DNA from: a virus
UHGV virus genome: UHGV-0060032
DNA length: 14,617 nucleotides
Reading direction: 5' to 3' (one strand)
Under the pieces are notes generated by a model. That model was not told where the DNA came from, ran no database searches, and saw only the letters and a program-made list of their open reading frames with translations. A program made the position numbers and the translations under genes. How positions within the stretch are numbered: the first letter of the stretch is position 1; every line of letters begins with the position of its first letter. Of the stretch, positions 721 to 14,352 are shown piece after piece.

Positions 721-1590
721 ATGACAAATACAGCAAAAATACTCAACTTCGGCAGAGGTAACTTTGCCGAACAGGAGCTAAGAGTGGCTGATATCGATGA
801 TGGTTACACCAGATTCGCTAACGAGCTGCTGGAAGCTATCGCAAGTGCCGATTTAACCGCTCGCCAGTTGAAAGTTATGCTGGCCTACGTCCGGAAAACA
901 TATGGATTCAATAAGAAAACAGATCGAATAGCCGATGAGCAAATTGCTCAGTTAACAGGACTATCAAGGCAGAATGTTAACAAGGCTAAAAAAGAACTGA
1001 TTTCAATGAATTGCCTGTTTATGGATGGAAATCAAATCGGTGTAAACAGGGAGGTATCTGCGTGGCAATTCAGCAAGTGTCTCCAAGTTAGCAACTTTGT
1101 CTCGAAGTTAGAGACAAAAAATGTCTCCAAATTAGAGACACTCAATGTCTCGAAGTTAGAGACACTCAATGTCTCGAAGTTAGAGACACACAAAAGACAT
1201 TCTTTAAAGACAAAAGAAAATATTAATAAACCCCCTATATCCCCCAAAAAAATTTCTCAGAAGTTCGACCCGCTAGAAACAGAGTTGCCTGATTGGTTAT
1301 CGGCAGAAACATGGTTGTCGTGGGTTACCTATCGCAAGGAGATAGGTAAGTCGATCAAGTCTAAGCAAAGCGTCACTCAGGCTATCAACGTTCTAAGCAG
1401 AAGTCTGGAGAAGGGATATACACCTGAAGAAATTATAAACCAGAGCATCGCCAGTGGTTGGCAGGGGATTTTTGAACCCAAGACTCCAAAGGGGAAATCT
1501 CAACCGAGGCCGCAGCAGCGAGCTATGCAGGAAAACTTTGCCGCCAAAGATTACGGGCAAACTGAAATGCCTTCATGGGCGCAGGAGTGA
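721..1590 (+). CDS. Replication initiator, lambda O-like (iteron-binding N-terminal domain)
   Basis: N-terminus MTNTAKILNFGRGNFAEQE...DDGY...LKVMLAYVRKTYGFNK closely resembles lambda O N-terminal domain; the gene contains the iteron array; RBS AGGAG upstream. Confidence 0.8.
   Translation: MTNTAKILNFGRGNFAEQELRVADIDDGYTRFANELLEAIASADLTARQLKVMLAYVRKTYGFNKKTDRIADEQIAQLTGLSRQNVNKAKKELISMNCLFMDGNQIGVNREVSAWQFSKCLQVSNFVSKLETKNVSKLETLNVSKLETLNVSKLETHKRHSLKTKENINKPPISPKKISQKFDPLETELPDWLSAETWLSWVTYRKEIGKSIKSKQSVTQAINVLSRSLEKGYTPEEIINQSIASGWQGIFEPKTPKGKSQPRPQQRAMQENFAAKDYGQTEMPSWAQE
1078..1260 (+). repeat. Origin of replication: iteron array plus AT-rich tract inside the O-like gene
   Basis: Four copies of the palindromic 19-mer TGTCTC-N7-GAGACA at 1098, 1122, 1146 and 1170 (exact 24-bp spacing), a degenerate copy at 1078, then an A/T-rich stretch 1189-1260. 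This mirrors ori-lambda organisation. Confidence 0.8.
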
Positions 1591-1592
1591 AT

Positions 1593-2486
1593 ATGAATAC
1601 GACAAATGGTTACAATCTGGCACTGCAAAGGCAACTTGTAGACTCAAAAATCAATGACATTTCTGATCTGAAACAGAAACTTGAGTTTAGCAAAATTGGA
1701 TCAGTATCAGATGGAATGTCAGTTACCAGCACAGTGGAAGAGTGCGAGAAACACGGTAAATATACTTCCTATGAGAAATATCTGACCATCTCAGGAAAAA
1801 GAATTACTTCAAGTAAATCTGAGTGCCCACAGTGCCTTGAGGAGAAAATTCGTAAGAAAGAGATTGAACGTGAGCAGGCAGAACAAAGAGCAAGACAATC
1901 AAAAATTGAATATTTGTTGAATTCTCTCAATATTCCAGAGAGGTTCAAAAATTGCACTCTTCAGAATTATGAGCCTGTTAACGATGATGCAAAGCGAGTT
2001 CTTAAGGTATGCCAGGCATATGCCAGTAAGTGGCCTGAACGCCTTCAAAAAGGTGGCGGACTGGTCATGTGTGGTAAGCCTGGAACTGGAAAGAACCACC
2101 TTGCACTGGCTATCGCTAGGCACGCCATTATCGAGCATCAAAGCTCTGTGATATTTACCACTGCGTTGAAAATTGCCAGAGAGTACAAATCAACATGGTC
2201 TAAGGCCGCAACCAGAACTGAAGAAGAAGTCATTAGGCAATTTACGCATCCTGACTTGTTAATAATCGATGAGGTTGGCGTGCAGTTCGGCAGTGATGCT
2301 GAAAAGCTAATCATGTTCGAAATTATCAACACCAGATATGAATACATGAAGCCAACAATCCTGATTAGTAATCAGAGCAAAGATGAACTTTCGGCATTCA
2401 TTGGTGAGCGTGTTATTGACAGGATGAATGATGGCGGAGGGTGCACTCTTGCGTTTACATGGGATAGTTACAGGAGCAGATCGTGA
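1593..2486 (+). CDS. DnaC/IstB-like AAA+ helicase loader with N-terminal Cys-containing extension
   Basis: Walker A GKPGTGKNHLA and Walker B LLIIDEVG; CEKHG...CPQC motif near N-terminus; start at 1593 chosen for AGGAG RBS; occupies the lambda P position after O. Confidence 0.75.
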   Translation: MNTTNGYNLALQRQLVDSKINDISDLKQKLEFSKIGSVSDGMSVTSTVEECEKHGKYTSYEKYLTISGKRITSSKSECPQCLEEKIRKKEIEREQAEQRARQSKIEYLLNSLNIPERFKNCTLQNYEPVNDDAKRVLKVCQAYASKWPERLQKGGGLVMCGKPGTGKNHLALAIARHAIIEHQSSVIFTTALKIAREYKSTWSKAATRTEEEVIRQFTHPDLLIIDEVGVQFGSDAEKLIMFEIINTRYEYMKPTILISNQSKDELSAFIGERVIDRMNDGGGCTLAFTWDSYRSRS

Positions 2487-2773
2487 CTGGAAAAGAAATC
2501 ATCCTGGAATATCTGAAAACTCATGAACAATTCTCCCCACATGAATTAGCACTGATCACCGGAATACCAAATAACAGAATCGCTCAAGCAGCAAGGCATA
2601 TGGTGAAACAAGGACATTTGAGTGTTGTTGAGCGTAAGTGGAAGACGGTTATTTATGCAAAACGCAAAGTGAAGAAGGAGCCAATTAAAAGAAATCCAGA
2701 TGGTACGGGGTGGGGATGTGCAAATCCAATGACGGCGTTTATTAATAGGGCGCTTATGGAGGTAAGGCAATGA
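2483..2773 (+). CDS. Small hypothetical protein, possibly winged-helix DNA-binding
   Basis: 96-aa ORF with a GTG start overlapping the stop of the loader gene (translational coupling); basic C-terminus; no family recognised. Confidence 0.4.
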   Translation: MTGKEIILEYLKTHEQFSPHELALITGIPNNRIAQAARHMVKQGHLSVVERKWKTVIYAKRKVKKEPIKRNPDGTGWGCANPMTAFINRALMEVRQ

Positions 2774-2798
2774 CCATCTACATCACTGAGCTAATAAC

Positions 2799-2830
2799 AG
2801 GCCTGCTGGTAATCGCAGGCCTTTTTATTT
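2799..2830 (+). terminator. Rho-independent terminator-like hairpin
   Basis: AGGCCTGC (2799-2806), 8-nt loop, GCAGGCCT (2815-2822), followed by TTTTATTT. Confidence 0.65.
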
Positions 2831-2859
2831 GGGGGAGAGGGAATTGGAGGCTTTAAGAA

Positions 2860-3075
2860 ATGAGTACGATAGCTGAGCTTGTCAGGGCTAATTTTCGTGA
2901 AGAGTTGGTGCGTTGGTATCGGTATCGTTCATCGTCCAGTTTGCCGATTGATGAGTTGTATGAGCATTCACCTGCTGCACGACGCTATCCGCGTGACCGT
3001 GTTCTTCGACGGTTGTCCAAACTCAACAATGAGTTTCAGCGCAACAGAATTATTCGGAGTCTGGATTTAAAGTAA
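2860..3075 (+). CDS. Hypothetical protein (71 aa)
   Basis: ORF with GGAGG RBS 8-12 nt upstream of ATG; no recognisable family. Confidence 0.4.
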   Translation: MSTIAELVRANFREELVRWYRYRSSSSLPIDELYEHSPAARRYPRDRVLRRLSKLNNEFQRNRIIRSLDLK

Positions 3076-3085
3076 AGGAGTGAGC

Positions 3086-3292
3086 ATGACAAATCAGCAG
3101 CAAATAGAGTTCATCCTTGAGCAGATTCGAAAAATGCGAGAAAAGAACCAGCCAGACATGATGGAAATATGGAGACGCCAGCAGGAAGAATACCGCAAGC
3201 ATATTTTTGGTGAGAGAAAACAGGATGACTGGAGCCTATATGGCTATGGCACCAGGACAAATAAAAACGGATATAGCCTTTACACATATTGA
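3086..3292 (+). CDS. Hypothetical protein (68 aa)
   Basis: ATG at 3086 preceded by AAGGAG; charged, helical-looking product; no recognisable family. Confidence 0.4.
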   Translation: MTNQQQIEFILEQIRKMREKNQPDMMEIWRRQQEEYRKHIFGERKQDDWSLYGYGTRTNKNGYSLYTY

Positions 3293-3300
3293 GGAATTCC

Positions 3301-3711
3301 ATGAAACAGACAATTTTCCTCAGGAGTAAGCAACAACAGCAAACCGCAATCACCGCCATCCTCGCAACACCACTCGATAAAGACAAGCCAGTTACCATCC
3401 GCATTACTGACTACAAGCGCAACCTTGACCAGAACGCAAAATTTCACGCGATGCTGGCGGATATCGCAAGTCAGGTTCAATGGTGCGGCAAATGGTTAAA
3501 ACCAGAACAATGGAAGGTTTTGTTGATAAGCGGTCATGCAGTGGCAACAAAGCAGGAAGCTGATGTTTTGCCCGGCCTTGAAGGCGAATACGTCAACATT
3601 CGCGAAAGCAGCGCGCAGATGAGCGTGAAGCGTATGGCAAGTCTGATCGAGTACACAACAGCATGGGCTATTGGTCAGGGTGTCAGATTTACCGACAGGA
3701 GGTACGAATGA
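3301..3711 (+). CDS. ninB: NinB-like recombination protein
   Basis: The segment [24 protein letters not shown]...[12 protein letters not shown] resembles lambda NinB as I recall it; GAGGAA RBS; first gene of a nin-like cluster. Confidence 0.6.
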
Positions 3712-3884
3712 GACGACAGCGACGAAGTATCACCGACATAATCTGCGAAAACTGCAAATACCTTCCAACGAAACGCTCCAGAAATAAACGCAAGCCAATC
3801 CCAAAAGAATCTGACGTAAAAACCTTCAACTACACGGCTCACCTGTGGGATATCCGGTGGCTAAGGCATCGTGCGAGGAAATGA
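3708..3884 (+). CDS. ninE: NinE-like small protein
   Basis: 58-aa basic product [19 protein letters not shown]...; ATGA overlap with ninB stop; size and position match ninE. Name is from recall and synteny only. Confidence 0.5.
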
Positions 3885-3886
3885 CA

Positions 3887-4297
3887 ATGGATTATTCACA
3901 GTTAAGTGATTTTGAAATTAACAAGCGAGTATGTGAGGCTTTAGATATGGAGGAGCATTTCTTCATACCTGATGACGAAGCAGATTTCGATTCTGAGATC
4001 CCCACTGACGAAAGAGGTCCTATTTGGCAGACGCAAAAAAGGGATATTAATGGCTTCCGTTCTTCAAACGGAAATTGCTTCAATCCTTGCAATAATCCTG
4101 AATATGCGTGGCCAATTATCACTGAAAACAAAATCAGCATAATGTTTGATAGTACCGATACGAGATATGAAGGCGAATATCACGAGTGGTGTGATGCGAT
4201 TTCATCTTGTCAAAAGTTCGGAATTCAGTATCAGTCTAATCCACTCCGCGCCGCCATGATTGTCTTTCTCATGATGCAGGACGCCAATAATGCTTAG
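3887..4297 (+). CDS. Hypothetical protein in NinX-like position (136 aa, acidic, Cys-containing)
   Basis: ORF between ninE-like and ninF-like genes; start at 3887 chosen for GAGGAA spacing (3881 also possible). The NinX call is positional only. Confidence 0.4.
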   Translation: MDYSQLSDFEINKRVCEALDMEEHFFIPDDEADFDSEIPTDERGPIWQTQKRDINGFRSSNGNCFNPCNNPEYAWPIITENKISIMFDSTDTRYEGEYHEWCDAISSCQKFGIQYQSNPLRAAMIVFLMMQDANNA

Positions 4298-4466
4298 CCC
4301 ATCCCAATCCCTTCAATACCAGAAAGAAAGCGTCGAGCGGGCTTTAACGTGCGCTAACTGCGGTCAGAAGCTGCATGTGCTGGAAGTTCACGTGTGCTCC
4401 GATTGCTGCGCAGAGCTGATGAGCGATCCGAATAGCTCAATGTACGAGGAAGAAGACGATGAATGA
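4290..4466 (+). CDS. ninF: NinF-like small Cys-rich protein
   Basis: 58-aa ORF absent from the supplied track (under 60 aa); MLSPSQSLQYQKESVERALTCANCGQKLHVLEVHVCSDCCAELMSDPNSSMYEEEDDE; CxxC...CxxCC pattern; overlaps both neighbours. Confidence 0.5.
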   Translation: MLSPSQSLQYQKESVERALTCANCGQKLHVLEVHVCSDCCAELMSDPNSSMYEEEDDE

Positions 4467-5181
4467 GTTAATAAATGGCAATGCCATCAAAATGACAAGC
4501 ATTGAAATCGCTGAGTTGGTGGGAAGTCGTCATGACAAGGTGAAACAATCTATTGAACGACTGGCGGCTCGAGGTGTGATCCGAAATCCCCCAATGGTGG
4601 TTTTCGAAAAAATCAATAACTTAGGATTACTTCGTGGCGTAGAGGCTTACGTTTTTGAGGGCGAACAAGGTAAGCGAGACAGCATTATTGTCGTCGCTCA
4701 GTTGTCGCCGGAATTCACCGCTCGTCTTGTTGACCGTTGGCGAGAGCTTGAAGAAGCTGCGGTTAATATCCCCAAAACGCTACCAGAAGCGTTGCGCCTT
4801 GCTGCTGATCTTGCTGAGCAGAAAATGCAACTGGAAAACCAGCTCGCAATTGCCGCACCTAAAGTTGAGTTTGCCGATCGCGTTGGCGAGGCCAGCGGAA
4901 TTTTGATTGGAAACTTTGCAAAGGTTGTTGGTATTGGTCCAAACAAACTGTTTGCGTGGATGCGCGATCACAAAATCCTTATTGCTTCAGGTTCCCGGCG
5001 CAATGTGCCAATGCAGGAATATATGGAGCGCGGCTATTTCACAGTGAAAGAAACAGCGGTCAACACAAATCACGGAATACAGATATCGTTCACCACAAAA
5101 ATCACCGGGCGTGGTCAACAGTGGCTGACCAGAAAGCTGCTCGATAACGGAATGCTGAAAGTAACAGGGGAGGCTGCTTAA
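4459..5181 (+). CDS. Phage antirepressor-like protein (Rha/AntA-like N-terminal region, KilA-C/ANT-like C-terminal region)
   Basis: 240 aa; N-terminal SIEIAELVGSRHDKVKQSIERL resembles Rha/Ant N-domains; C-terminal half (APKVEFADRVGE...YFTVKET...) resembles KilA-C domains. Assigned by recall of family motifs. Confidence 0.6.
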   Translation: MNELINGNAIKMTSIEIAELVGSRHDKVKQSIERLAARGVIRNPPMVVFEKINNLGLLRGVEAYVFEGEQGKRDSIIVVAQLSPEFTARLVDRWRELEEAAVNIPKTLPEALRLAADLAEQKMQLENQLAIAAPKVEFADRVGEASGILIGNFAKVVGIGPNKLFAWMRDHKILIASGSRRNVPMQEYMERGYFTVKETAVNTNHGIQISFTTKITGRGQQWLTRKLLDNGMLKVTGEAA

Positions 5182-5471
5182 TGGCCAATCTACGCAAAGA
5201 AGCACGCGGCAGAGAATGTCAGGTACGTATTTACGGCGTATGCAATGGCAATCCTGAAACTACAGTTCTGGCACATTACCGGATGGCTGGAATTTGCGGA
5301 ACGGGAATGAAACCTGACGACCTGATCGGCGCATGGGCTTGTAGCGACTGCCACGCGGAGATCGACCGACGCACCCATAACCTCGACAACAAAGACGCCA
5401 GACTTTACCACCTCGAAGGCGTGATCAGGACGCAGGCGATACTGCTGAAGGAGGGGAAGATTAAACCATGA
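5181..5471 (+). CDS. YbcO-like DUF1364 protein (putative nuclease)
   Basis: 96 aa; MANLRKEARGRECQVRIYGVCNGNPETTVLAHYR...CSDCHAEIDRR resembles E. coli prophage YbcO; sits directly upstream of rusA as in DLP12-type prophages. Confidence 0.6.
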   Translation: MANLRKEARGRECQVRIYGVCNGNPETTVLAHYRMAGICGTGMKPDDLIGAWACSDCHAEIDRRTHNLDNKDARLYHLEGVIRTQAILLKEGKIKP

Positions 5472-5830
5472 ACGAATATCAGTTTGTGCTTCCATACCCG
5501 CCGTCGCTGAATACCTACTGGAGAAGACGGGGAAGCCAATACTACATCAGCGATAAAGGCCAGAAATACCGAAAAGACGTTCAGCAAATCATTCGCCAAC
5601 TCAAGTTAGACATTTTCACCAAATCACGACTCCGTATCAAAGTCATCGCAGACGTTCCAGATTCCCGCCGCCGCGACCTCGACAACATCCTGAAAGGTTT
5701 ACTCGACTCCCTTATCCACGCCGGATTTGCGGAAGACGACGAGCAATTCGATGACATTCGCGTAATTCGTGGTGTGAAAGTACCAGGCGGACGGCTTGGA
5801 ATAAAAATCACCGAACTGGAGAACGCATGA
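5468..5830 (+). CDS. rusA: Holliday junction resolvase RusA
   Basis: 120 aa; LPYPPSLNTYWRRRG...RRRDLDNILKGLLDSL...GGRLGIKITEL matches the RusA family including the acidic catalytic RRDLDN motif. Confidence 0.8.
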   Translation: MNEYQFVLPYPPSLNTYWRRRGSQYYISDKGQKYRKDVQQIIRQLKLDIFTKSRLRIKVIADVPDSRRRDLDNILKGLLDSLIHAGFAEDDEQFDDIRVIRGVKVPGGRLGIKITELENA

Positions 5831-6015
5831 ACGCCACAATTCAAACGATACCAGAGCTTCTTATCCAGACACGAGGCAATCAGACCGAAGTGGCGAGGAT
5901 GCTTTCCTGCGCAAGAGGAACAGTGCTCAAGTACAACCGAGACAGCAAAGGCGAGCGTCACGTAATAGTTAACGGCGTCCTGATGGTCAAACAAGGCAAG
6001 AGGGGAAGACGATGA
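5827..6015 (+). CDS. ninH: NinH-like small DNA-binding protein
   Basis: 62 aa; TIPELLIQTRGNQTEVARMLSCARGTVLKY resembles lambda NinH (Fis-like HTH) as I recall it; directly upstream of Q. Confidence 0.5.
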   Translation: MNATIQTIPELLIQTRGNQTEVARMLSCARGTVLKYNRDSKGERHVIVNGVLMVKQGKRGRR

Positions 6016-6530
6016 GCATAAGAGAACTAAACCTCACCAAAGAGCAGCACGAGTGGCTGAATGGCTGGCTTGAACTGTGGGGCGCATGGGTTTATTCAGG
6101 TCGTCTGGAAAAGCGCATGAGCAGCGTAATAGCGAAGTTCATGGAGAGCGTAGAGCCGGGAAGAATTATGACAAGGCCAATGTGTAATGATGATGATGGA
6201 ATGTTGATTTCTCAGGTCGTTGATTCCGTCATGTACATTGACAAGAAAGCCTTTGGCATCCTCCTCAGCTACTACGCTCATGGTTCATCTAAGCGAGCAA
6301 TTGCATCCTACTATCACGCGACTGCAAAGCCACGCAAGATGTGTGGACGCGGTGGCGAGGGATGGAGAAAACCTTCACTGGCAACCTGTAGAAACGAAAT
6401 TGACGATATCCTGAAAGCGTCATTATTTGTTTTGTACCAACCAATGCAAAATGCTTTCAAAATGCGTAAACGTGTTGAGAAAGTTAAGCATGTTGCTGTT
6501 AAAAACCTTGACATGCAATTAGCCATTTAG
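6012..6530 (+). CDS. Late-gene antiterminator Q (P22 gp23 / DLP12 QuuD-like family)
   Basis: 172 aa; WLELWGAWVYSG...RPMCNDDDGMLI resembles the Q-antiterminator family; a late-promoter-like element overlaps its 3' end. Confidence 0.65.
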   Translation: MSIRELNLTKEQHEWLNGWLELWGAWVYSGRLEKRMSSVIAKFMESVEPGRIMTRPMCNDDDGMLISQVVDSVMYIDKKAFGILLSYYAHGSSKRAIASYYHATAKPRKMCGRGGEGWRKPSLATCRNEIDDILKASLFVLYQPMQNAFKMRKRVEKVKHVAVKNLDMQLAI

Positions 6531-6537
6531 CCATAAT
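6508..6537 (+). promoter_or_regulatory. pR'-like late promoter
   Basis: -35 TTGACA (6508-6513), 18-bp spacer, -10 CATAAT (6532-6537), overlapping the end of the Q gene. Confidence 0.6.
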
Positions 6538-6593
6538 TAGAGGGTAAGCTGCCGTTAGTGACTCTTAAGTTGCAACGGTGGCTTTTTTTATTT

Positions 6594-6668
6594 GGGTCAG
6601 TCGTATAAAGGTCATTACGGAAGGCTGTTAACCTTCTTATCGTGGTTCGAGTCCACGCTGTCCCGCCA
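6594..6668 (+). tRNA. tRNA-Asn (anticodon GUU), phage-encoded
   Basis: Hand-folded cloverleaf, 75 nt: acceptor GGGTCAG/CTGTCCC (one U-U mismatch), U8, anticodon stem GAAGG/CCTTC with loop CUGUUAA, T-arm CGTGG-TTCGAGT-CCACG, discriminator G and encoded CCA. Confidence 0.6.
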
Positions 6669-6673
6669 AACAT

Positions 6674-6749
6674 GCTGGTTTAGCTCCAATGGTAGAGCGG
6701 TCGCCTTGTAAGTGAATAGGTAGCGGTTCAAATCCGTTAACCGGCACCA
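6674..6749 (+). tRNA. tRNA-Thr (anticodon UGU), phage-encoded
   Basis: Hand-folded cloverleaf, 76 nt: acceptor GCTGGTT/AACCGGC, D-arm GCTC-CAATGGTA-GAGC, anticodon loop CUUGUAA (stem has one G-A mismatch), T-arm AGCGG-TTCAAAT-CCGTT, discriminator A and CCA. Confidence 0.55.
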
Positions 6750-6805
6750 AAAACCCAGCCAGGGTATCTTCAGCCGCAGAGCTGACATTGCCACACCCTA
6801 ACATT

Positions 6806-6830
6806 CCCGCCTTGAGCGGGTTTTTTATTT
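6806..6830 (+). terminator. Rho-independent terminator (tR'-like), after the tRNAs and before the lysis genes
   Basis: CCCGC (6806-6810), loop CTTGA, GCGGG (6816-6820), then TTTTTTATTT. Confidence 0.75.
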
Positions 6831-6938
6831 CAGGCTCACGGGAATCAATCACTACGTGCTTTGTTGAAAATCCAGCCAGTGAAGCCTGATCCTTTTCATA
6901 CACACACAGCGCCATCCGAAAAATCGGAGGTGAGGCCT

Positions 6939-7262
6939 ATGAAAATGCCATACAAACAAGATTTCATCGCTGCGCTACTTGCCGCCAAGGAGCAGGGTAT
7001 TGGTGCAATGCTGGCTTTTATCATGGCGTATCTGCGTGGTCGCTATAACGGCGGCGCGGTAACAAAAACGCTAATTGATGCGCTGATGTGCGCGATGATT
7101 GCCTGGTTCGTTCGTGACCTTCTGGACTTTATCGGCCTGAGCAGCAACCTCGCCTACATAGCCAGCGTCTTTATTGGATACATCGGCACCGATTCGATCG
7201 GCAATCTTATTAAAAAACTTGCAGCAAAAAAGGCGGGAGTTGACGATGCAAACCAGTCCTGA
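6939..7262 (+). CDS. Class I holin, lambda S-like, with dual-start motif
   Basis: 107 aa from ATG 6939; begins [27 protein letters not shown]..., near-identical in pattern to lambda S including the Met-Lys-Met dual start (second ATG at 6945). Confidence 0.85.
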
Positions 7263-7695
7263 CGGAATTGCTCTGATAAAAAAATTTGAAGGTTGTCGGC
7301 TGACTGCTTACCCCGACCCCGGAACGGGAGATGCGCCGTGGACCATCGGCTATGGCTGGACCCATCCGGTTGACGGAAAGCCAGTAAAGCGCGGTATGAC
7401 TATCGACCAGCAAACCGCTGACAGGCTTCTGAAAACAGGGCTTGTTGGTTATGAGAATGACGTGCTGAAAGTTGTCAGGGTGAAGCTGACACAAGGCCAG
7501 TTCGACGCACTGGTGTCGTTCGCTTACAACGTTGGGTCGCGTGCTCTTTCCACATCTACACTGCTGAAAAAGCTGAATGCTGGCGATATAAAAGGCGCGG
7601 CAGATGAATTTCTGCGCTGGAATAAATCAGGCGGAAAGGTGATGCCGGGGCTCACGAATCGCCGCAAGGCAGAGCGAGCTCTGTTCCTGTCATGA
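7246..7695 (+). CDS. Endolysin, lysozyme (glycoside hydrolase family 24, P22 gp19-like)
   Basis: 149 aa from ATG 7246; [33 protein letters not shown] and C-terminal [11 protein letters not shown] typical of T4/P22-type lysozymes; overlaps holin end. Confidence 0.85.
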
Positions 7696-8159
7696 TTAGC
7701 GCACTGGTTAAGCGTTACTGGCTGCAGTTGCTGGTGCTGGCGTTAATCGGCGCACTGGCTTTCTTCGTGAACCACTACCGCGACAACGCCATCACTTACA
7801 GAGACCAGCGCGATAAGGCCACTGAGAAACTCCTCCTGGCGACCGCCACCATTAAAGACATGCAGACCCGCCAGCGTGATGTCGCTGCACTGGATGCCAA
7901 ATACACCGGAGAACTGGCTGATGCGAAAGAAACCATTGAGCGTCTGCATAGCGATGTCATTGCTGGCCGTAAGCGGCTGCAAGTCGCCGCCACCTGTGCA
8001 AAGTCAACGACCGGAGCCAGCGGCATGGGCGATGGAGAAAGCCCAAGACTTACAGCAGATGCTGAACTCAATTATTACCGTCTCCGAAGTGGAATCGACA
8101 AGATAACCGCGCAGGTTAACTACCTGCAGGAGTACATCAGGACGCAATGCCTGAAATAA
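7692..8159 (+). CDS. Rz-like i-spanin
   Basis: 155 aa; N-terminal transmembrane segment [17 protein letters not shown] then charged coiled-coil-like region; ATGA overlap with lysozyme stop; contains Rz1 in the +1 frame. Confidence 0.8.
7921..8106 (+). CDS. Rz1-like o-spanin (outer-membrane lipoprotein) embedded within Rz
   Basis: 61 aa from ATG 7921: [20 protein letters not shown] (signal peptide plus lipobox Cys) followed by proline-rich [13 protein letters not shown]; fully nested in Rz. Confidence 0.75.
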
Positions 8160-8192
8160 TTTTTTTTGCAAATCACAAAGTCCATTTAATGA

Positions 8193-8216
8193 GCCTCGCG
8201 ATGCGGGGCTTTTTTA
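8193..8216 (+). terminator. Rho-independent terminator-like hairpin after the lysis cassette
   Basis: GCCTCGC (8193-8199), loop GAT, GCGGGGC (8203-8209, one G-U pair), followed by TTTTTT. Confidence 0.6.
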
Positions 8217-8359
8217 CATCTGAATTTCACAGCGCATCTCACGCGCATATTACCACTCAGAACCTTTCAGGATGACCCTTGAGGATACCGGCTGGCTGTC
8301 GGAGCATCTGAGGGCCGGATTTCCTGTGAGACAAGGTTCATCACTAAAAGGTAAATCCG

Positions 8360-8911
8360 ATGAATGATATTTCTATCGAATATCTGAAAGAAGCACTGGA
8401 ATACGCACCAGATACTGGTGTTATCCGTTGGAAGCAGCGACCAAAAATTCATTTTAAGACCGAAAATTCTTGGCGGGCGACCAATGCTAATTTTGCTGGA
8501 AAAGTAGCAGGCGCACGTGATAGCGATGGATATTTGCGTATCGGGATATGCGGCCGGTTATATAGATCTCATCGTGTAGCCTGGGCGTTACATTACGGCT
8601 ACTGGCCTGATAATGAGATTGATCACATTTCAGGCGATAGGAGTGATAACCGCATAGACAACTTGCGATCAGTAACTTCGGCAGCCAATAGCAAAAATTT
8701 GCGCCTTTACTCCACAAATAAAACCGGTATCCCAGGAGTAGGTTGGTATAAAGCGCGGGGAAAGTGGAGAGCAAAGATAAACGTCTCTGGGAAGGTGAAG
8801 CATATTGGTTACTTCGATGATTTCCGTGAAGCGGTGAAAGCAAGAAAGGCTGCCGAGATGCAGTTGCAATATCACAAAAATCACGGAACCAGAGACAGGC
8901 TCACTTTCTAA
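8360..8911 (+). CDS. HNH endonuclease with C-terminal AP2-like DNA-binding region
   Basis: 183 aa; HNH core HRVAWALHYGYWPDNEIDHISGDRSDNRIDNLR; C-terminal GIPGVGWYKARGKWRAKINVSGKVKHIGYFDDFREA resembles AP2 domains of phage endonucleases. Confidence 0.75.
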   Translation: MNDISIEYLKEALEYAPDTGVIRWKQRPKIHFKTENSWRATNANFAGKVAGARDSDGYLRIGICGRLYRSHRVAWALHYGYWPDNEIDHISGDRSDNRIDNLRSVTSAANSKNLRLYSTNKTGIPGVGWYKARGKWRAKINVSGKVKHIGYFDDFREAVKARKAAEMQLQYHKNHGTRDRLTF

Positions 8912-8925
8912 AAGGTAAAGACGCT

Positions 8926-9450
8926 ATGAATAATCATTCAGTTATTCCATCCTTCGACTTCCGAGAAATGGTGCAAGCCAAAAACGGAGAGGTCGTTACC
9001 ACATCCAGAAAAATTGCCAAGTACTTCGGCAAGCGACACGGTGATGTTCTCAGGAAAATCGAGCAGGTTAAGGCTGATTGCTCGCGTGAGTTTAGCCAAC
9101 GCAATTTTGCGTCGGCTGATTATATCGATGAGCAGGGCAAGGTTCGCCCGATGTACAGCCTGACGAAAGATGGCTGGATCATGGTTGTGATGGGGTTCAC
9201 CGGGAAAGCTGCTGCGGCAATCAAGGAGAGCTATATCGCAGCATTCAACTGGATGGCAGAGCAGCTAAACCGGCGCATGGCGATGGGTGAAGAATTGCAG
9301 CATCGCTACGCCATCAAAGAAACGCGCTCAAAGCTGAAAGGCACGTTCGGAAGCCGTTTGATGAACGAGCGGAAGAAAGAGAAGCGCGTCCTGGAGCTCG
9401 AACATGAGCACATCATGCAGGTAACGCAGCCGGAATTACTTATTGGCTGA
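8926..9450 (+). CDS. Phage regulatory protein Rha family
   Basis: 174 aa; VVTTSRKIAKYFGKRHGDVLRKIEQV...MYSLTKDGWIMVVMGF matches the Rha-domain pattern as I recall it. Confidence 0.65.
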   Translation: MNNHSVIPSFDFREMVQAKNGEVVTTSRKIAKYFGKRHGDVLRKIEQVKADCSREFSQRNFASADYIDEQGKVRPMYSLTKDGWIMVVMGFTGKAAAAIKESYIAAFNWMAEQLNRRMAMGEELQHRYAIKETRSKLKGTFGSRLMNERKKEKRVLELEHEHIMQVTQPELLIG

Positions 9451-9510
9451 TCGCGGCATTACAGAAGCCCTTCATTGAGGGGCTTCGATAATGGAGCACT
9501 GGAATTATTC

Positions 9511-10131
9511 ATGAACAGACCACACCCACCAGCGCATTTTACGATGCCACCTGACCCGAAGCCGTACATCAGCATTATGCCCGCTAATGACGTTGGCGAG
9601 TGGCTGAATCAGCACATCCTGAGCGATGAGGGTGACCTCTACAACCATGACCACCAGCATTTGCTTGAAGCGGATCTGTGCTTTCTCTGGGCATCGAACG
9701 CTTTCGAGAAGAAAGGGCGTTCCGTGCTGGGGCAGGCGGAAGAAGTGGCAATGCGGGCCGGAGGCTGGCAGAAAGCGCGGATGGAGCAGCAGATGTATGA
9801 ATGGTTCGGCAGGGTGCCGCAGTTCATCATCACGCTGGCCGCCGATTACTGCTCGCAATGTTCCGATCTGGAATTCTGCGCGCTGATAGAGCACGAGCTT
9901 TATCACATCTGCCAAGCGACAGATGAATTTGGTGCGCCGAAGTTCACGCAGGAAGGGCAGCCAAAGCTGAAGCTGCGCGGCCATGACGTGGAAGAGTTTG
10001 TGGGCGTGGTTCGCCGTTACGGTGCGAGCCGGGACGTGCAGGAAATGATTGATGCGGCGAATCAGCCAGCGGAGGTTGCTCATCTCGATATTGCCAGAGC
10101 GTGCGGGACGTGCATGCTGCGACTGGCTTAA
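9511..10131 (+). CDS. Hypothetical HExxH-motif protein (putative zinc metallopeptidase-like)
   Basis: 206 aa from ATG 9511 (TTG 9475 or ATG 9544 also possible); HExxH motif in ALIEHELYHI preceded by CSQCSDLEFC; GC-rich codon usage like the packaging genes. Confidence 0.5.
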   Translation: MNRPHPPAHFTMPPDPKPYISIMPANDVGEWLNQHILSDEGDLYNHDHQHLLEADLCFLWASNAFEKKGRSVLGQAEEVAMRAGGWQKARMEQQMYEWFGRVPQFIITLAADYCSQCSDLEFCALIEHELYHICQATDEFGAPKFTQEGQPKLKLRGHDVEEFVGVVRRYGASRDVQEMIDAANQPAEVAHLDIARACGTCMLRLA

Positions 10132-10162
10132 ATACTGGACTGTATAAGACGAATGGTGATTT

Positions 10163-10636
10163 ATGGCTGCATTAAAACCTGATGTGAAAGCCTTCATCAT
10201 TCAGTCGCTTGCGTGCTATGACACGCCATCGCAGGTGGTCGAGGCTGTCCAAAAAGAATTCGGGATCAGGATCACCCGCCAGCAGGCTGAATCTCACGAC
10301 CCCACGAAGGCCAGCGGTAAGACGCTCGCCAAAAAGTGGATCGAGATGTTCCACGCGACGCGCGAACGGTTCCTGACCGAAACCAGCGACATTCCGATAG
10401 CGAACAAATCCTATCGCCTCCGCGTGCTTGACCGCATGGCAACCAAAACCGAGGGGATGAAAAACTTCTCCCTGACGGCGCAGCTTATCGAACAGGCCGC
10501 GAAAGAGGTTGGCGACGCTTACACCAATAAGCTGAAGGTTGAGAGCACTGGCAAGGATGGCGGCCCGATCAAGACCGAGACGACCAACCTCACCGCAGAT
10601 CAGGCCGCAGAGATTTACCGCAAGATGATGGGGTGA
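10163..10636 (+). CDS. Terminase small subunit (DUF2280-like)
   Basis: 157 aa; [35 protein letters not shown] resembles the DUF2280 putative small-terminase family as I recall it; directly upstream of and overlapping TerL. Confidence 0.6.
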
Positions 10637-10638
10637 TC

Positions 10639-12261
10639 ATGCCTCTCCCGTTTGAATTCGATTTCAGAAACCCTGATTACCAGATGGTTTTTGAATGGCG
10701 GATGGAGCGCTTACAGCGCATTCGCCAGAACCCTGAAATGCTGCCAGCGCTAAAGCAGTTTTATCGCACCAACCCGGCACAGTTCATCATCGACTGGGGT
10801 ATGACTACTGACCCGCGTAACATCGATTATGGCCTGCCGGTCACCATCCCTTTTCTGCTGTTCCCGAAACAGGAAGAGTGGATTCACTGGATCATGGAGC
10901 GGCGCGAACGACTGGAGAACGGCATCACCGAAAAGAGCCGCGAAATGGGGCTCAGTTGGACCGCGATCGGGCTGGCCTGCTCGCTTTGTCTCTTCAACAA
11001 AGAAATGGTTATCGGTTTCGGCTCCCGTAAAGAGGAATACGTCGACAGCACCGGTGACCCGAAGGCGCTGTTCTGGAAGGCGCGAAAGTTCGTGGAAACA
11101 CTGCCCATCGAGTTTCGTGGTTCGTGGGACGAGAAGAAGCATGCGCCGTATATGCGCGTTGAGTTTCCCGATACTGGCGCGGTCATCAAAGGCGAGGCTG
11201 GCGACAATATCGGTCGTGGTGACCGTACCACGCTCTACCTGGTGGATGAAGCTGCATTCCTCCAGCGTCCTCTGTTGATTGATGCGGCGCTGTCGCAAAC
11301 CACCCGTTGCCGTATTGACCTGAGCTCGGTTAATGGCATGGCGAACCCGTTCGCGCAGAAGCGTCACGGCGGGAAGATACCGGTATTCACATTCCACTGG
11401 CGGGATGATCCTCGCAAGGATGAAGAGTGGTATCGCAGGGAGTGCGAGAAAATCGACAATCCGGTGGTGGTGGCGCAGGAACTTGACCTGAACTACAGCG
11501 CATCTGCGGAAGGCGTCCTGATCCCGTCCGACTGGGTACAGGCTGCCGTCGACGCGCATATCAAACTTGGTATTCAGCCAACGGGCAAGCGACTGGGCGC
11601 GATGGACGTCGCCGACGAAGGCCGGGACAAAAATGCCTTTTCGACCCGTCACGGCTTCCTTCTGGAGAACGTGCGTGAATGGTCCGGCGTGGGCAGCGAC
11701 ATTTACCAGTCCGTTGAGAAGGTCTTCGGCTTTTGCGAACAGGACAACCTCGAAGAATTTCGCTTCGACGAGGACGGCCTGGGCGCTGGCGTTCGCGGCG
11801 ATGCACGCGCCATCAACGAACTGCGTAACGCTGCGCGCCGACCGTCAATACTCGCCACACCGTTTCGTGGTAGCGGCGCGGTATTTGATCCGGACGATGA
11901 AGCGGTGCGCGGGGACAACGGACAGGCCGCACGCCTGAACAAGGACTTCTTCGCCAACGCCAAGGCCCAGAGCTGGTGGCATTTACGCAAGCTTTTCCAG
12001 AACACCTATCGCGCCGTGGTTGAGGGCATGGCCTACAACCCGGACGAAATCATCTCAATCAGCAGCGCCATGGCGAGCAAAGACAAACTCATCATCGAGC
12101 TGTCGCAGCCGACCTACTCCATTAATGGCGTGGGGAAAATCGTTGTTGATAAACAGCCTGATGGCACCAAGTCGCCGAACCTCGCCGACTCGGTGATGAT
12201 CAGCTACGCGCCAATGAATTCAGCCCTGAACATCTGGGAGCTGCTAGGGAGACAGGCCTGA
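10639..12261 (+). CDS. Terminase large subunit
   Basis: 540 aa from ATG 10639 (in-frame GTG at 10633); Walker-B-like [11 protein letters not shown]; size and position between TerS and portal; acidic C-terminal half consistent with a nuclease domain. Confidence 0.75.
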
Positions 12262-13730
12262 TGGCACGAAACAAGCAATCCTCTCAGCGAACGGCACAGC
12301 CCACCGCTGACGGCTACGAGAACTTCGTCGCCCGTGTTGGGATGCAGACGCCTAACCAGCATTCAGCATCGACCTACCGGGCGAACTCCACCAGCCGCAA
12401 CCGCATGCTGGTGGAATGGTCATATCGCGGTTCGTGGGTTATCGGTGAAGCGGTCGACGCTATCCCGGACGATATGACCCGAAAGGGCATTCGCATCACT
12501 TCGGAGATTGACGCCAAAGACCGTGGCACCCTCGAAGCGCAACTGGATGAGTTGCAGATCTGGGATGCGCTGAACGACGTGCTGAAATGGTCGCGCCTCT
12601 ACGGCGGCGCGGTCGGCTTCATCATGATCGAGGGGCAAGCACCAATGACCCCGCTGCGACTCGAAACCATTGGCGAGGGCAAGTTTAAGGGCATTCTCCC
12701 GCTCGACCGCTGGATGATTAACCCGGTGCTGACACGCCGCATTAAAGAGATGGGGCCGGACCTCGGCAAGCCTGAGTTTTACGACGTGGTGACCACCGCA
12801 ACGGGCATTCCGGCCTGGCGCATCCATCACAGCCGCCTGATCCGCTTTGATGGCGTCACGCTGCCATTCCAGCAGAAGATGACCGAAAACGAATGGGGAA
12901 TGTCGGTTGTAGAGCGTATCTGGGATCGGCTTACTGCGTTCGATAGCGCTACTGTCGGCGCGGCGCAGCTGGTCTATAAAGCGCATCTGCGTACCTATAG
13001 CGTGGAGAAGTTGCGCGAGCTTATCGCGCTTGGAGGCCCGGCGTTCGAAGCGTTGCTGAAGAACATCGACCTGATCCGCCAGTTCCAGAGCAATGAAGGT
13101 ATGACGCTCATGGACTCGCGGGATAAGTTCGAAACCCACCAGTACAGCTTTAGTGGTCTGGATGACATTCTTTCGCAGTTTGCTGAGCAGATCAGCGGTG
13201 CCGTTGGTATCCCGCTGGTACGCCTGTTCGGTCAATCCCCGAAAGGCTTCTCTACTGGTGATGCAGACCTCGCCAACTATTACGACCGGGTGAGCTCATT
13301 GCAGGAGCGCCGCTTACGGCTGCCGATGCGCCGGATACTGGACATTATGCACCGCTCGGAACTCGGAAAGCCGCTGCCGGACGATTTCACGTTTGAGTTT
13401 AACCCGCTATGGCAAATGTCAGACGTTGACCGATCAACGGTGGCCGTAAACACCACCAACGCGATCAGTACCGCGCTGGGCGACGGATTGATGACGCGTA
13501 AGGCGGCGATGACCGACCTGCGCGAAAACTCTGACGTCACCGGCATCGGGGCATCCATTACCGACGAGGATATCGAGAATGCCGAAGACGAAGCGCCGCC
13601 AGGCATCGGCGAACTTGGCGACAAACCGCCAGAGTCGCCAGGCGGAGATCCGATATCGAACGAGCCTACGGCAGATAGCGCGGGCGGTCGGGGATATCGT
13701 AAATGGGCGCTACGATGGTTCAAACGATAG
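12261..13730 (+). CDS. Portal protein
   Basis: 489 aa; ATGA overlap with TerL stop; position after TerL and before a Mu-F-like gene (SPP1-type order); acidic low-complexity C-terminus. Confidence 0.7.
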   Translation: MARNKQSSQRTAQPTADGYENFVARVGMQTPNQHSASTYRANSTSRNRMLVEWSYRGSWVIGEAVDAIPDDMTRKGIRITSEIDAKDRGTLEAQLDELQIWDALNDVLKWSRLYGGAVGFIMIEGQAPMTPLRLETIGEGKFKGILPLDRWMINPVLTRRIKEMGPDLGKPEFYDVVTTATGIPAWRIHHSRLIRFDGVTLPFQQKMTENEWGMSVVERIWDRLTAFDSATVGAAQLVYKAHLRTYSVEKLRELIALGGPAFEALLKNIDLIRQFQSNEGMTLMDSRDKFETHQYSFSGLDDILSQFAEQISGAVGIPLVRLFGQSPKGFSTGDADLANYYDRVSSLQERRLRLPMRRILDIMHRSELGKPLPDDFTFEFNPLWQMSDVDRSTVAVNTTNAISTALGDGLMTRKAAMTDLRENSDVTGIGASITDEDIENAEDEAPPGIGELGDKPPESPGGDPISNEPTADSAGGRGYRKWALRWFKR

Positions 13731-14352
13731 CGTCACCGAAATAATGGATGCGCTGGAGCGCTACAGCGAAATCATCACCCCCTGGGCGACGAAGGTTGCT
13801 GAGAACTTCACCGCAGACATAGCGCGCCAGAATGAAAAGCAGTGGCGTCAGCACAGCCGGAACATCAGCGCAGAGCTGCGCAACATGGTTGACCGCGCCC
13901 CGGTAGGCCAGGTGATGAAATCCATCGTTGCCGAGCAAATTAAGTACATTAAATCGCTGCCTCTTGAGGCCGCCGATCGGGTGTATGACATTCAGAACAA
14001 AGCCATCGAGGCTGTTGTGACTGGTGGCCGCGCTGAGCCATTCGCGAAAGAGATAGCTGCTTCCGGTGACGTGTCACGCTCACGAGCGAACCTTATCGCC
14101 CGGACTGAGCTTGGGCGCGCAACCGGTGCACTGGATCAGGCGCGTGCGCTGTCAATCGGCTCGAATGGTTATATCTGGCGTACAGCCGAAGATGGCGACG
14201 TCCGGCATTCTCATCGAGAGATGGAAGGGAAGTTTGTCGAATGGGGCCGACCTCCAACGCTTGACGGCATGACCGGTCACGCCGGGGAGTTACCTAACTG
14301 CCGTTGCTACAAAGAAATCGTATTCCCGACACCTCATCCCTATCTCGCCTGA
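13579..14352 (+). CDS. Head morphogenesis protein (Mu F / SPP1 gp7 family)
   Basis: Conserved C-terminal region ANLIARTELGRATGALDQARALSIGSNGYIWRTAEDGDVRHSHREMEGK... typical of Mu-F-like proteins. Start is uncertain: ATG 13579 has a GAGGA RBS but overlaps portal by 152 nt; ATG 13744 is the alternative. Confidence 0.7.
   Translation: MPKTKRRQASANLATNRQSRQAEIRYRTSLRQIARAVGDIVNGRYDGSNDSVTEIMDALERYSEIITPWATKVAENFTADIARQNEKQWRQHSRNISAELRNMVDRAPVGQVMKSIVAEQIKYIKSLPLEAADRVYDIQNKAIEAVVTGGRAEPFAKEIAASGDVSRSRANLIARTELGRATGALDQARALSIGSNGYIWRTAEDGDVRHSHREMEGKFVEWGRPPTLDGMTGHAGELPNCRCYKEIVFPTPHPYLA

Follow-up and report, generated by a model that had tools for sequence, protein, structure and literature searches.

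The viral genome UHGV-0060032 was analysed as a stretch of 14,617 nt (the window; coordinates are those of its + strand), in which two tRNA genes, tRNA-Asn(GUU) at 6594-6668 and tRNA-Thr(UGU) at 6674-6749, lie between the late promoter of a lambdoid phage and the holin gene. We conclude that these are very probably functional tRNAs of the cassette known from phage 21, and that the pair most likely replaces host tRNAs destroyed by anti-phage nucleases. Our full statement, to which we assign a probability of roughly 0.6, is that the window holds two functional elongator tRNAs of the phage-21-type late-leader cassette whose main role is counter-defence. The cassette itself is already known. Its annotation goes back to the genome record of Sf6 (AF547987), and the phage L paper discusses it, so the suggestion that the feature might be new, made in a model-generated reading of the letters alone (the original prediction), was mistaken; only the rare window allele of tRNA-Thr, with C40U, is new. 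As a discovery the finding is minor, given that the cassette has long been annotated and that one of its two tRNAs was functionally characterised in 2025.

ARAGORN, run on the whole window as a check, called exactly two tRNA genes, both on the + strand and both at the locus where the original prediction had placed them. Rfam RF00005 matched them with 55.3 bits (Asn) and 55.4 bits (Thr) against a gathering score of 29 (E ~7e-10), and there were no other Rfam matches in the window. Neither locus is treated as a pseudogene by the predictors: PGAP, which is based on tRNAscan-SE, annotates both genes in E. coli genomes, including a genome with the exact window allele, and the annotation of phage 21, made with ARAGORN and tRNAscan-SE, likewise reports two tRNA genes. 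An attP-type tRNA fragment was ruled out, as both genes are full length with an encoded CCA and no integrase is near their place in the late leader. When the sequences were folded singly, the minimum free energy structures had z-scores of -1.6 to -1.7, and that of tRNA-Thr was not a cloverleaf; the assessment rests instead on the covariance model and on covariation.

Both tRNAs carry the elements expected for aminoacylation. tRNA-Asn has an encoded G73-CCA, a 4-nt variable loop, and the anticodon arm GAAGG/CUGUUAA/CCUUC, and it therefore contains the bacterial identity set of GUU anticodon plus G73 (identity sets from PMC9976931) together with the CCA end. Sf6 and phage 21 carry the same allele. 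tRNA-Thr has an encoded A73-CCA and the anticodon arm GUCGC/CUUGUAA/GUGAA. Its acceptor pairs G1-C72 and C2-G71, which are identity elements of E. coli tRNA-Thr, are present, as are G35, U36, and A73-CCA.

The original prediction had noted a U-U mismatch in the acceptor stem of tRNA-Asn and a G-A mismatch in the anticodon stem of tRNA-Thr, and had left functionality open because of them. Both mismatches are indeed there: the non-canonical pairs of tRNA-Asn are U4·U69 in the acceptor stem and U13·U22, while in tRNA-Thr the uppermost position of the anticodon stem is G27·A43, which leaves a 4-bp stem. We compared the genes with homologues from 80 IMG/VR loci collected via the Q protein, more than 100 loci collected via a D-arm pattern with the other stems free, and named phages, which gave a covariation set of 21 distinct Asn and 25 distinct Thr alleles from the lambdoid family. 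Because the D-arm pattern was used for collection, the invariance of the Asn D arm is a matter of construction. Position 4:69 was unpaired in 20 of the 21 Asn alleles, and 27:43 was an unpaired G·A in every one of the 25 Thr alleles.

The remaining stems covary. With the canonical cloverleaf, eight stem pairs of tRNA-Asn and four of tRNA-Thr were changed on both sides, corresponding to 27 and 16 cells, respectively. Among 500 shuffles, the pair count was matched by none for Asn and by seven for Thr, and the cell count was matched by none for either tRNA. A standard pair was found in 90% of the Asn cells and 94.5% of the Thr cells, whereas sliding the 3' partners by 1-3 columns reduced standard pairs to 35-54% and 22-47%, with 0-1 both-side-changed pairs in these slid controls. 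Compensatory changes in tRNA-Asn include 6:67 (A-U to G-C), 7:66 (G-C to A-U), and 28:42 (A-U to C-G). In tRNA-Thr, 6:67 changes from U-A to C-G, and 3:70 forms the series U-A, U-G, C-G, of which the window's U·G is the intermediate. Since divergent alleles retain the mismatches while their other stem pairs covary, we regard the mismatches as features rather than damage. Nor is functionality open for the reason given in the original prediction, because the near-identical tRNA-Thr of phage 21 takes the place of the cleaved host tRNA in vivo and so restores growth (PMC12445682). The shortening of the anticodon stem by G27·A43 is the feature which that work identifies as part of the mechanism of resistance to the nuclease P2 Old (PMC12445682). 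The cassette may thus serve as a worked example of how a seemingly damaged tRNA, with a mismatch in its anticodon stem, can represent an adaptation, kept across alleles, by which the phage copy becomes a poor nuclease substrate.

Two nucleases described in 2025 have targets that match the pair. P2 Old, the effector of P2-lambda interference, kills the cell by severing the anticodon arm from host tRNA-Thr(UGU) (Govande et al. 2025, PMC12445682). Its cleavage site follows the C of a CNG motif that is paired (28-30/40-42), and phage tRNA-Thr(UGU) rescues cells by replacing the host tRNA and restoring ACA decoding (PMC12445682). In particular, tRNA-Thr21 of phage 21 protected cells from Old, with Site 1 being almost completely resistant. 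Its resistance to cleavage is partial overall and needed both the shortened anticodon stem and an altered CNG, including C28U/G42A (PMC12445682). Host tRNA-Asn(GUU) is also cut by Old, more slowly than thrU. AriB of the PARIS system cuts the host tRNAs for Lys(UUU), for Thr(UGU), and for Asn(GUU) between positions 40 and 41, beside a conserved UAAU (Belukhina et al. 2025, PMC12409363). The change U39A abolishes AriB cleavage, and the Lys, Thr, and Asn variants of T5 jointly neutralise PARIS (PMC12409363). Thus, the tRNA-Thr(UGU) of the cassette corresponds to the primary target of Old and a prime target of AriB, and its tRNA-Asn(GUU) corresponds to a secondary target of both.

The anticodon stems of the window tRNAs differ from those of the host at the sites that matter for these nucleases. 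Host thrU has a 5-bp stem at 27-31/39-43 (ACUGA/UCAGU) with the paired CNG CUG/CAG, and reads UAAUCA at 36-41. In the window tRNA-Thr this stem is GUCGC/GUGAA, reduced to 4 bp by G27·A43 and with U28-A42; there is no paired CNG, and 36-41 reads UAAGUG. The host tRNA-Asn stem (GCGGA/UCCGU) contains the paired CNG CGG/CCG and is accompanied by UAAUCC at 36-41, whereas the window tRNA-Asn has GAAGG/CCUUC, no paired CNG, and UAACCU. For Old, the window tRNA-Thr therefore has both determinants of resistance, with no CNG in either strand and a 4-bp stem, while tRNA-Asn has half of them, lacking the CNG but keeping a full 5-bp stem. Relative to the AriB site, U36-A-A-U39-C40|A41, tRNA-Thr is changed at 39, 40, and 41 and tRNA-Asn at 39 and 41. 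The anticodon loops of both are identical to the host's. From these comparisons we would expect the window Thr allele to be resistant, and the tRNA-Asn may be resistant to some degree as well.

The promoter region suggests when the tRNAs would be made. The original prediction had proposed a pR'-like promoter, and a promoter scan together with alignment to the annotated pR' of Sf6 and phage 21 agrees: the pR'-type site at 6508-6537 (+ strand) consists of a -35 element TTGACA at 6508-6513, an 18-nt spacer, and a -10 element CATAAT at 6532-6537, with 11/12 matches to the sigma-70 consensus. It overlaps the last codons of Q, which ends at 6530. The spacer contains a direct repeat, TTAGCCA at 6519-6525 and again at 6527-6533 (TTAGCCA-T-TTAGCCA), which overlaps the Q stop codon. 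In phage 21, the half-sites bound by Q, ATTGAGCA/AATGAGCA, sit where the window has this repeat, to which the Sf6/L-type Q allele probably binds. That the promoter spacer differs from the Q-binding element of phage 21 is in step with the different (Sf6/L-type) Q allele. Transcription would start near 6544, judging from alignment to the annotated start of phage 21.

Downstream of the promoter is a short late leader (6544-6593, + strand) that contains the terminator tR', recognised by its fold and by its identity to phage 21 (6545-6600). The hairpin lies at about 6548-6582 (with ends at 6546 or 6548 and 6582 or 6584) and is followed by a U7 run at 6583-6589; it folds with -21.1 kcal/mol (z = -4.5), and none of 200 shuffles folded equally well. 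Between 6545 and the first base of tRNA-Asn, the window matches the leader and terminator of phage 21 exactly, and this segment is the tR' annotated in phage 21 and Sf6. The phage 21 record annotates pR', the Q-binding element, the transcription start, a sigma-dependent pause element, and the terminator (PMID 1704887), followed by tRNA-Asn and tRNA-Thr, and the Sf6 record annotates the same features as "similar to phage 21". tRNA-Asn begins 4 nt past the U-run of tR', and the promoter scan found no further promoter-like site on the + strand from pR' to the holin gene. Consequently, transcription of the tRNAs should depend on Q. We rejected a separate tRNA promoter like pT of phage 933W, as none was found by the scan and tR' abuts tRNA-Asn, although the scan could have missed a weak or non-canonical promoter.

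A second intrinsic terminator (6806-6830, + strand; terminator scan) lies upstream of the holin gene and consists of a hairpin at 6806-6820 (CCCGC-CUUGA-GCGGG) followed by U6AUUU. The order at the locus is thus pR', short leader, tR', tRNA-Asn, tRNA-Thr, second terminator, holin. The original prediction had correctly placed a terminator before the holin gene, but it missed the strong tR' between the promoter and the tRNAs. From 6807 on, the sequence is common to phages Louie, HK225, and mEp237, where it lies roughly 130 bp upstream of the holin genes. The second terminator thus belongs to a mosaic segment other than that of the tRNAs, and it does not correspond to the tR' annotated in those phages. 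The possibility that it served as tR' in the donor of the holin was rejected, since in HK225 the annotated tR' directly follows Q and is about 600 bp upstream of the segment shared with the window; between the two, HK225 has reverse-strand open reading frames (ORFs).

Taken together, these features suggest the following course. In a lysogen and early in infection, pR' transcripts would stop at tR' (6548-6589), leaving the tRNAs largely silent. Once Q loads on RNA polymerase at the promoter, transcription would read through tR', the tRNAs, and the second terminator (6806-6830) into the holin gene and the late operon, so that the tRNA pair, lying between two terminators, should be transcribed only by Q-modified polymerase. 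Host tRNA-processing enzymes would then excise the tRNAs, whose CCA ends are encoded, from the 5' end of the late transcript; we infer both the Q-dependence of expression and this processing. The anticodon stem of host tRNA-Thr(UGU) is cut by P2 Old and by PARIS AriB, and that of tRNA-Asn(GUU) more weakly. The phage copies combine the anticodon loop of the host and its aminoacylation identity elements with altered anticodon stems that lack the features recognised by the nucleases, and late proteins could still be made.

Late protein synthesis is where such a replacement could be felt. To our knowledge, ACA in E. coli is decoded by tRNA-Thr(UGU) alone, and one or more ACA codons occur in 9 of the window's 10 late ORFs, so that without thrU hardly any late protein could be made. 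A resistant Thr copy at the head of the late transcript would be well placed to prevent this. In BTP1, the lytic operon begins directly after the two tRNA genes.

An alternative role is codon supplementation, in which the tRNAs top up the host pool for AAC/AAU and ACA in abundant late proteins and so speed virion production. The authors of the phage L paper proposed codon supply for the homologous tRNA-Asn, and 24 of the 25 Asn codons in its major capsid gene are AAC. The original prediction had likewise suggested comparing the AAC/AAU and ACA usage of the late genes, and we contrasted the early part of the window (721-6530; replication, nin, and Q) with the late part (6939-14352; lysis and packaging). 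For Asn the outcome gave weak support: AAC makes up 65% of Asn codons in late genes versus 42% in early genes (Fisher p = 0.002), with AAC:AAU ratios of 19:6 in the terminase gene and 15:2 in the portal gene. For Thr the outcome was the opposite. Although the tRNA is placed for late expression, ACA is depleted in late genes, where it accounts for 12% of Thr codons (6.6 per 1000) versus 39% (19.5 per 1000) in early genes (Fisher p = 8e-6), and tRNA-Thr is thus not matched to late-gene demand. Our host reference, a 22-kb K-12 sample in which ACA is 22% of Thr codons, is small and atypical and serves as a rough guide; the argument is carried by the contrast between early and late genes. This split is also consistent with modules of different evolutionary origin. 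Nor is Asn supply obviously limiting, as E. coli K-12, with four tRNA-Asn genes in all, has at least three identical ones within one 22-kb stretch. Finally, codon supply leaves unexplained why the stems, and not the anticodons, differ systematically from the host's, and why a mismatch is conserved. We therefore consider it an unlikely main function.

Two further explanations seem less probable still. Low read-through of tR' could provide the lysogen with nuclease-resistant Asn and Thr tRNAs, as a benefit against tRNase toxins (colicins, contact-dependent inhibition systems, type VI secretion effectors) or against its own abortive-infection systems. The BTP1 lysogen transcriptome paper treats the two tRNA genes separately in its list of highly expressed prophage genes, which suggests an appreciable signal in lysogenic cultures, but the rate of spontaneous induction of BTP1 is high and can account for it. 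Enterobacterial systems that target tRNA-Thr are diverse, including HepS of Gifsy-1 and a type VI secretion ADP-ribosyltransferase; yet HepS cuts the anticodon loop, which is identical in the phage and host Thr tRNAs. With tR' being a strong terminator and no separate promoter-like site found between pR' and the holin gene, we consider a benefit to the lysogen improbable. It is less probable again that the genes are decaying or non-decoding elements, whether relics or RNase P/RNase E processing punctuation between leader and late mRNA. Each cloverleaf does contain non-canonical pairs, many sister phages lack the cassette, and in the ST64T/L lineage the anticodon arm of the second gene is rearranged and the gene is not called by ARAGORN, so decay or remodelling does occur in this slot. 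Against this stand the strong compensatory covariation, the retention of identity elements and CCA, and the conservation of the mismatches themselves. Moreover, the phage 21 Thr allele protects cells against Old by standing in for the host tRNA once that is degraded, and ACA decoding is restored by phage tRNA-Thr(UGU) species (PMC12445682).

Several points weigh against counter-defence as the main role. The function of the window Thr allele and of the family's tRNA-Asn is deduced from sequence comparison. The rescue by Thr21 came from a plasmid rather than from the phage late operon (PMC12445682), and the tequintaviruses T5Mos, with its own Thr, and Bas34, with its own Asn, still needed a plasmid-supplied T5 copy against PARIS (PMC12409363). 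The cassette has no tRNA-Lys(UUU), the primary target of PARIS, so that by the data of PMC12409363 it could not alone defeat a B185-type PARIS. The early genes are rich in ACA (39% of Thr codons), and one such codon is present in Q itself; given late expression of the tRNAs, translation of early genes could not be rescued. The anticodon stem of tRNA-Asn is fully paired, a paired CNG persists in 8 of the 21 sister Asn alleles, and in one the arm resembles that of the host, indicating that selection for nuclease escape on Asn has not been uniform. The cassette is also dispensable, with the tRNAs found in only 33 of 81 examined sequences whose Q genes are near-identical, namely the window itself and 80 IMG/VR loci, one of which ends just after Q.

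Tentatively, and with clearly less confidence than we place in counter-defence as such, the pairing of Asn with Thr might be a dedicated two-tRNA counter-defence module of temperate lambdoid phages, directed against OLD-family Toprim anticodon-stem nucleases, such as P2 Old, PARIS AriB, and their relatives, and timed by Q to shield late protein synthesis. The window Thr allele (C40U, with G26 and U3·G70) would then be a further step of escape, and U4·U69 of tRNA-Asn would have been selected for evasion or discrimination. C40U removes the cytosine after which AriB and Old (at Site 2) cut and for that reason could be such a step; that it matters for resistance is speculation.

The cassette is widespread. 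Positions 6001-6750 are 94-98% identical to Sf6, HF4s, SPN9CC, BTP1, vB_SosS_Oslo, and numerous further P22-like and lambda-like phages, in the majority of which tRNA-Asn and tRNA-Thr are annotated at the same place, and 369 of 5,426 complete E. coli genomes carry the cassette. The exact window Thr allele was seen in one IMG/VR contig (L037) and, among the matches listed, in the single E. coli chromosome NZ_LR536431.1. The window ceases to resemble Sf6 and phage 21 at about 6750-6753, where a non-coding spacer (6750-6805, + strand) begins; no phage record matched 6750-6806. From the end of Q to the holin gene (6531-6938) we found no supported ORF of at least 20 aa, in agreement with the original prediction that the tRNAs are accompanied by no toxin or other ORF cargo.

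The surroundings of the tRNA pair are a lambdoid nin/late junction. The nin region genes YbcO (5181-5471), RusA (5468-5830), and NinH (5827-6015) are followed by Q (6012-6530, + strand), a late-gene antiterminator of 172 aa that represents the Sf6/L allele of the phage-21 Q family (Pfam PF06530 Phage_antitermQ, E = 1.6e-25); its DNA is 97% identical to Sf6 gene 59, and it has at least 597 relatives in IMG/VR. The first protein gene of the late operon encodes a lambda-family class I holin S with the dual start M-K-M (6939-7262, + strand; PF05106, E = 8.5e-30), which at 6939 reads ATGAAAATG. The endolysin (7246-7695, + strand; PF00959, E = 9e-48; ATG at 7246 verified) and Rz spanin (7692-8159, + strand; PF03245, E = 5e-39) follow. 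Between this lysis cassette and the gene of a DUF2280 protein (10163-10636; profile match), 8360-9450 encodes an HNH endonuclease (PF13392) and a Rha-family regulator (PF09669) and is an accessory insertion in the late operon. Two long ORFs on opposite strands overlap at 9475-10131 (+, 218 aa) and 9505-10200 (-, 231 aa).

Comparison with sister phages shows that the position just after tR' is a slot for recombination and mosaic exchange, occupied by tRNA arrays, by the untranslated orf-64 segment of lambda, or by other inserts. In L003, L010, L016, L017, L021, L029, and other sister loci whose Q gene is near-identical to the window's, the lambda orf-64 segment (J02459 44,777-44,998) stands in place of the tRNAs at about 3580-3900. 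It forms a long imperfect hairpin (GCACAACAGGTAAGAGCAtTG ... CAgTGCTCTTxxCGTTGTG) with tip inserts that differ widely between phages, and some versions finish with a T-arm-like GCCGGTTCGATTCCGGC and then CGCCACAACCCA. In ten sister loci, Rfam at its gathering threshold detected nothing in the alternative cassettes, and ARAGORN called no tRNA or tmRNA. In L016 (3604-3650, +), and with the same insert in L034, the hairpin tip after tR' contains a complete type I hammerhead core (CUGACGAGUCC...GGACGAAACGC...GCGUC). The L016 core scored 24.7 bits with Rfam Hammerhead_1, below the gathering score of 34 (E = 0.0015), and the insert may be a self-cleaving ribozyme with which a lambdoid late operon begins.

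Other variants of the slot keep tRNA genes or carry different cargo. In ST64T (L083, 781-852), and also in phage L, PS3, SW-70, and ST-29, a tRNA-Thr homologue keeps its acceptor and T arms. Its anticodon arm is replaced (GCCUUCCUAAGAAGGGA), with a net deletion of 4 nt and a loop that would have C33. The phage L paper reports that tRNAscan-SE calls this second gene Leu(UAA), while ARAGORN in our hands does not call it; it is either a decaying copy or a tRNA with a switched anticodon. In Klebsiella-type lambdoid phages (ST101-KPC2phi6.1, L084, 1201-1520; L085; and IMG/VR loci), homologues of Asn and Thr occur in longer arrays. The arrays were Asn-Phe-Thr-Arg(UCU) in six cases, Asn-Phe-Thr in three, Asn-Thr-Arg in two, Asn-Gly in five, and Asn alone in nine, a variety which indicates that the cassette grows and shrinks by whole-tRNA units. 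Phages Louie (L089, 671-1311) and HK225 (L088, 671-1081) have reverse-strand hypothetical genes between tR' and the holin gene and share the window's holin-proximal segment. These genes are another cargo variant in the slot after tR'.

Of the known systems, phage 21 (OL657228) is closest to the window. It has the same order of Q, pR', tR', tRNA-Asn, 5-nt spacer, and tRNA-Thr, its leader hairpin and tRNA-Asn are identical to the window's, and the tRNA pair as a whole is 96.8% identical over 156 nt. The same pair is also annotated in Sf6 (AF547987), BTP1, SPN9CC, HK446, and others. The window differs from phage 21 in that its Q and promoter spacer are of the Sf6/L allele. tRNA-Thr21 and the window tRNA-Thr share 71 of 76 positions; the five differences of the window allele are G26, C40U, an A in the variable loop, an A in the T-loop, and A70G, with pairing at C40U and A70G kept as G·U or U·G (U3·G70). 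The right junction differs as well. The lambda-like flank AACTGAGCCGTAGCC that follows the pair in phage 21, Sf6, and most sister loci is missing from the window, which instead diverges right after the Thr CCA into a spacer, the second terminator, and a lambda-type S holin gene. Among the loci seen, only L037, NZ_LR536431.1, and NZ_CP133811.1 share this junction. The missing flank is a matter of mosaic context and does not affect the identity of the tRNAs.

Shiga toxin (Stx) phages have both tRNAs and toxin genes in the equivalent slot, as the original prediction had recognised. Phage 933W is laid out as pR', qut, terminators, ileZ-argN-argO, terminator, stx2AB, and S, and it thus shares with the window a late promoter, one or more terminators, a tRNA cluster, another terminator, and downstream late genes. 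Its tRNAs are Ile-AUA and two Arg, in contrast to Asn and Thr in the window, and it has an annotated separate tRNA promoter, pT, as well as stx2AB and further ORFs before S, none of which the window has. The likeness to T5 is of another kind. T5 is a virulent phage with unrelated tRNA sequences in a 24-tRNA cluster transcribed from its own promoters, and it supplies tRNA-Lys(UUU), which the window cassette lacks. However, its protective tRNA-Thr (GUUGC/GCAUC, UAAG) and tRNA-Asn (GCAUC/GUUGA, UAAG) show the same classes of change as the window tRNAs: with the same Thr(UGU) and Asn(GUU) anticodons, they have neither U39, and with it UAAU, nor a paired CNG, and their Thr stem is weaker.

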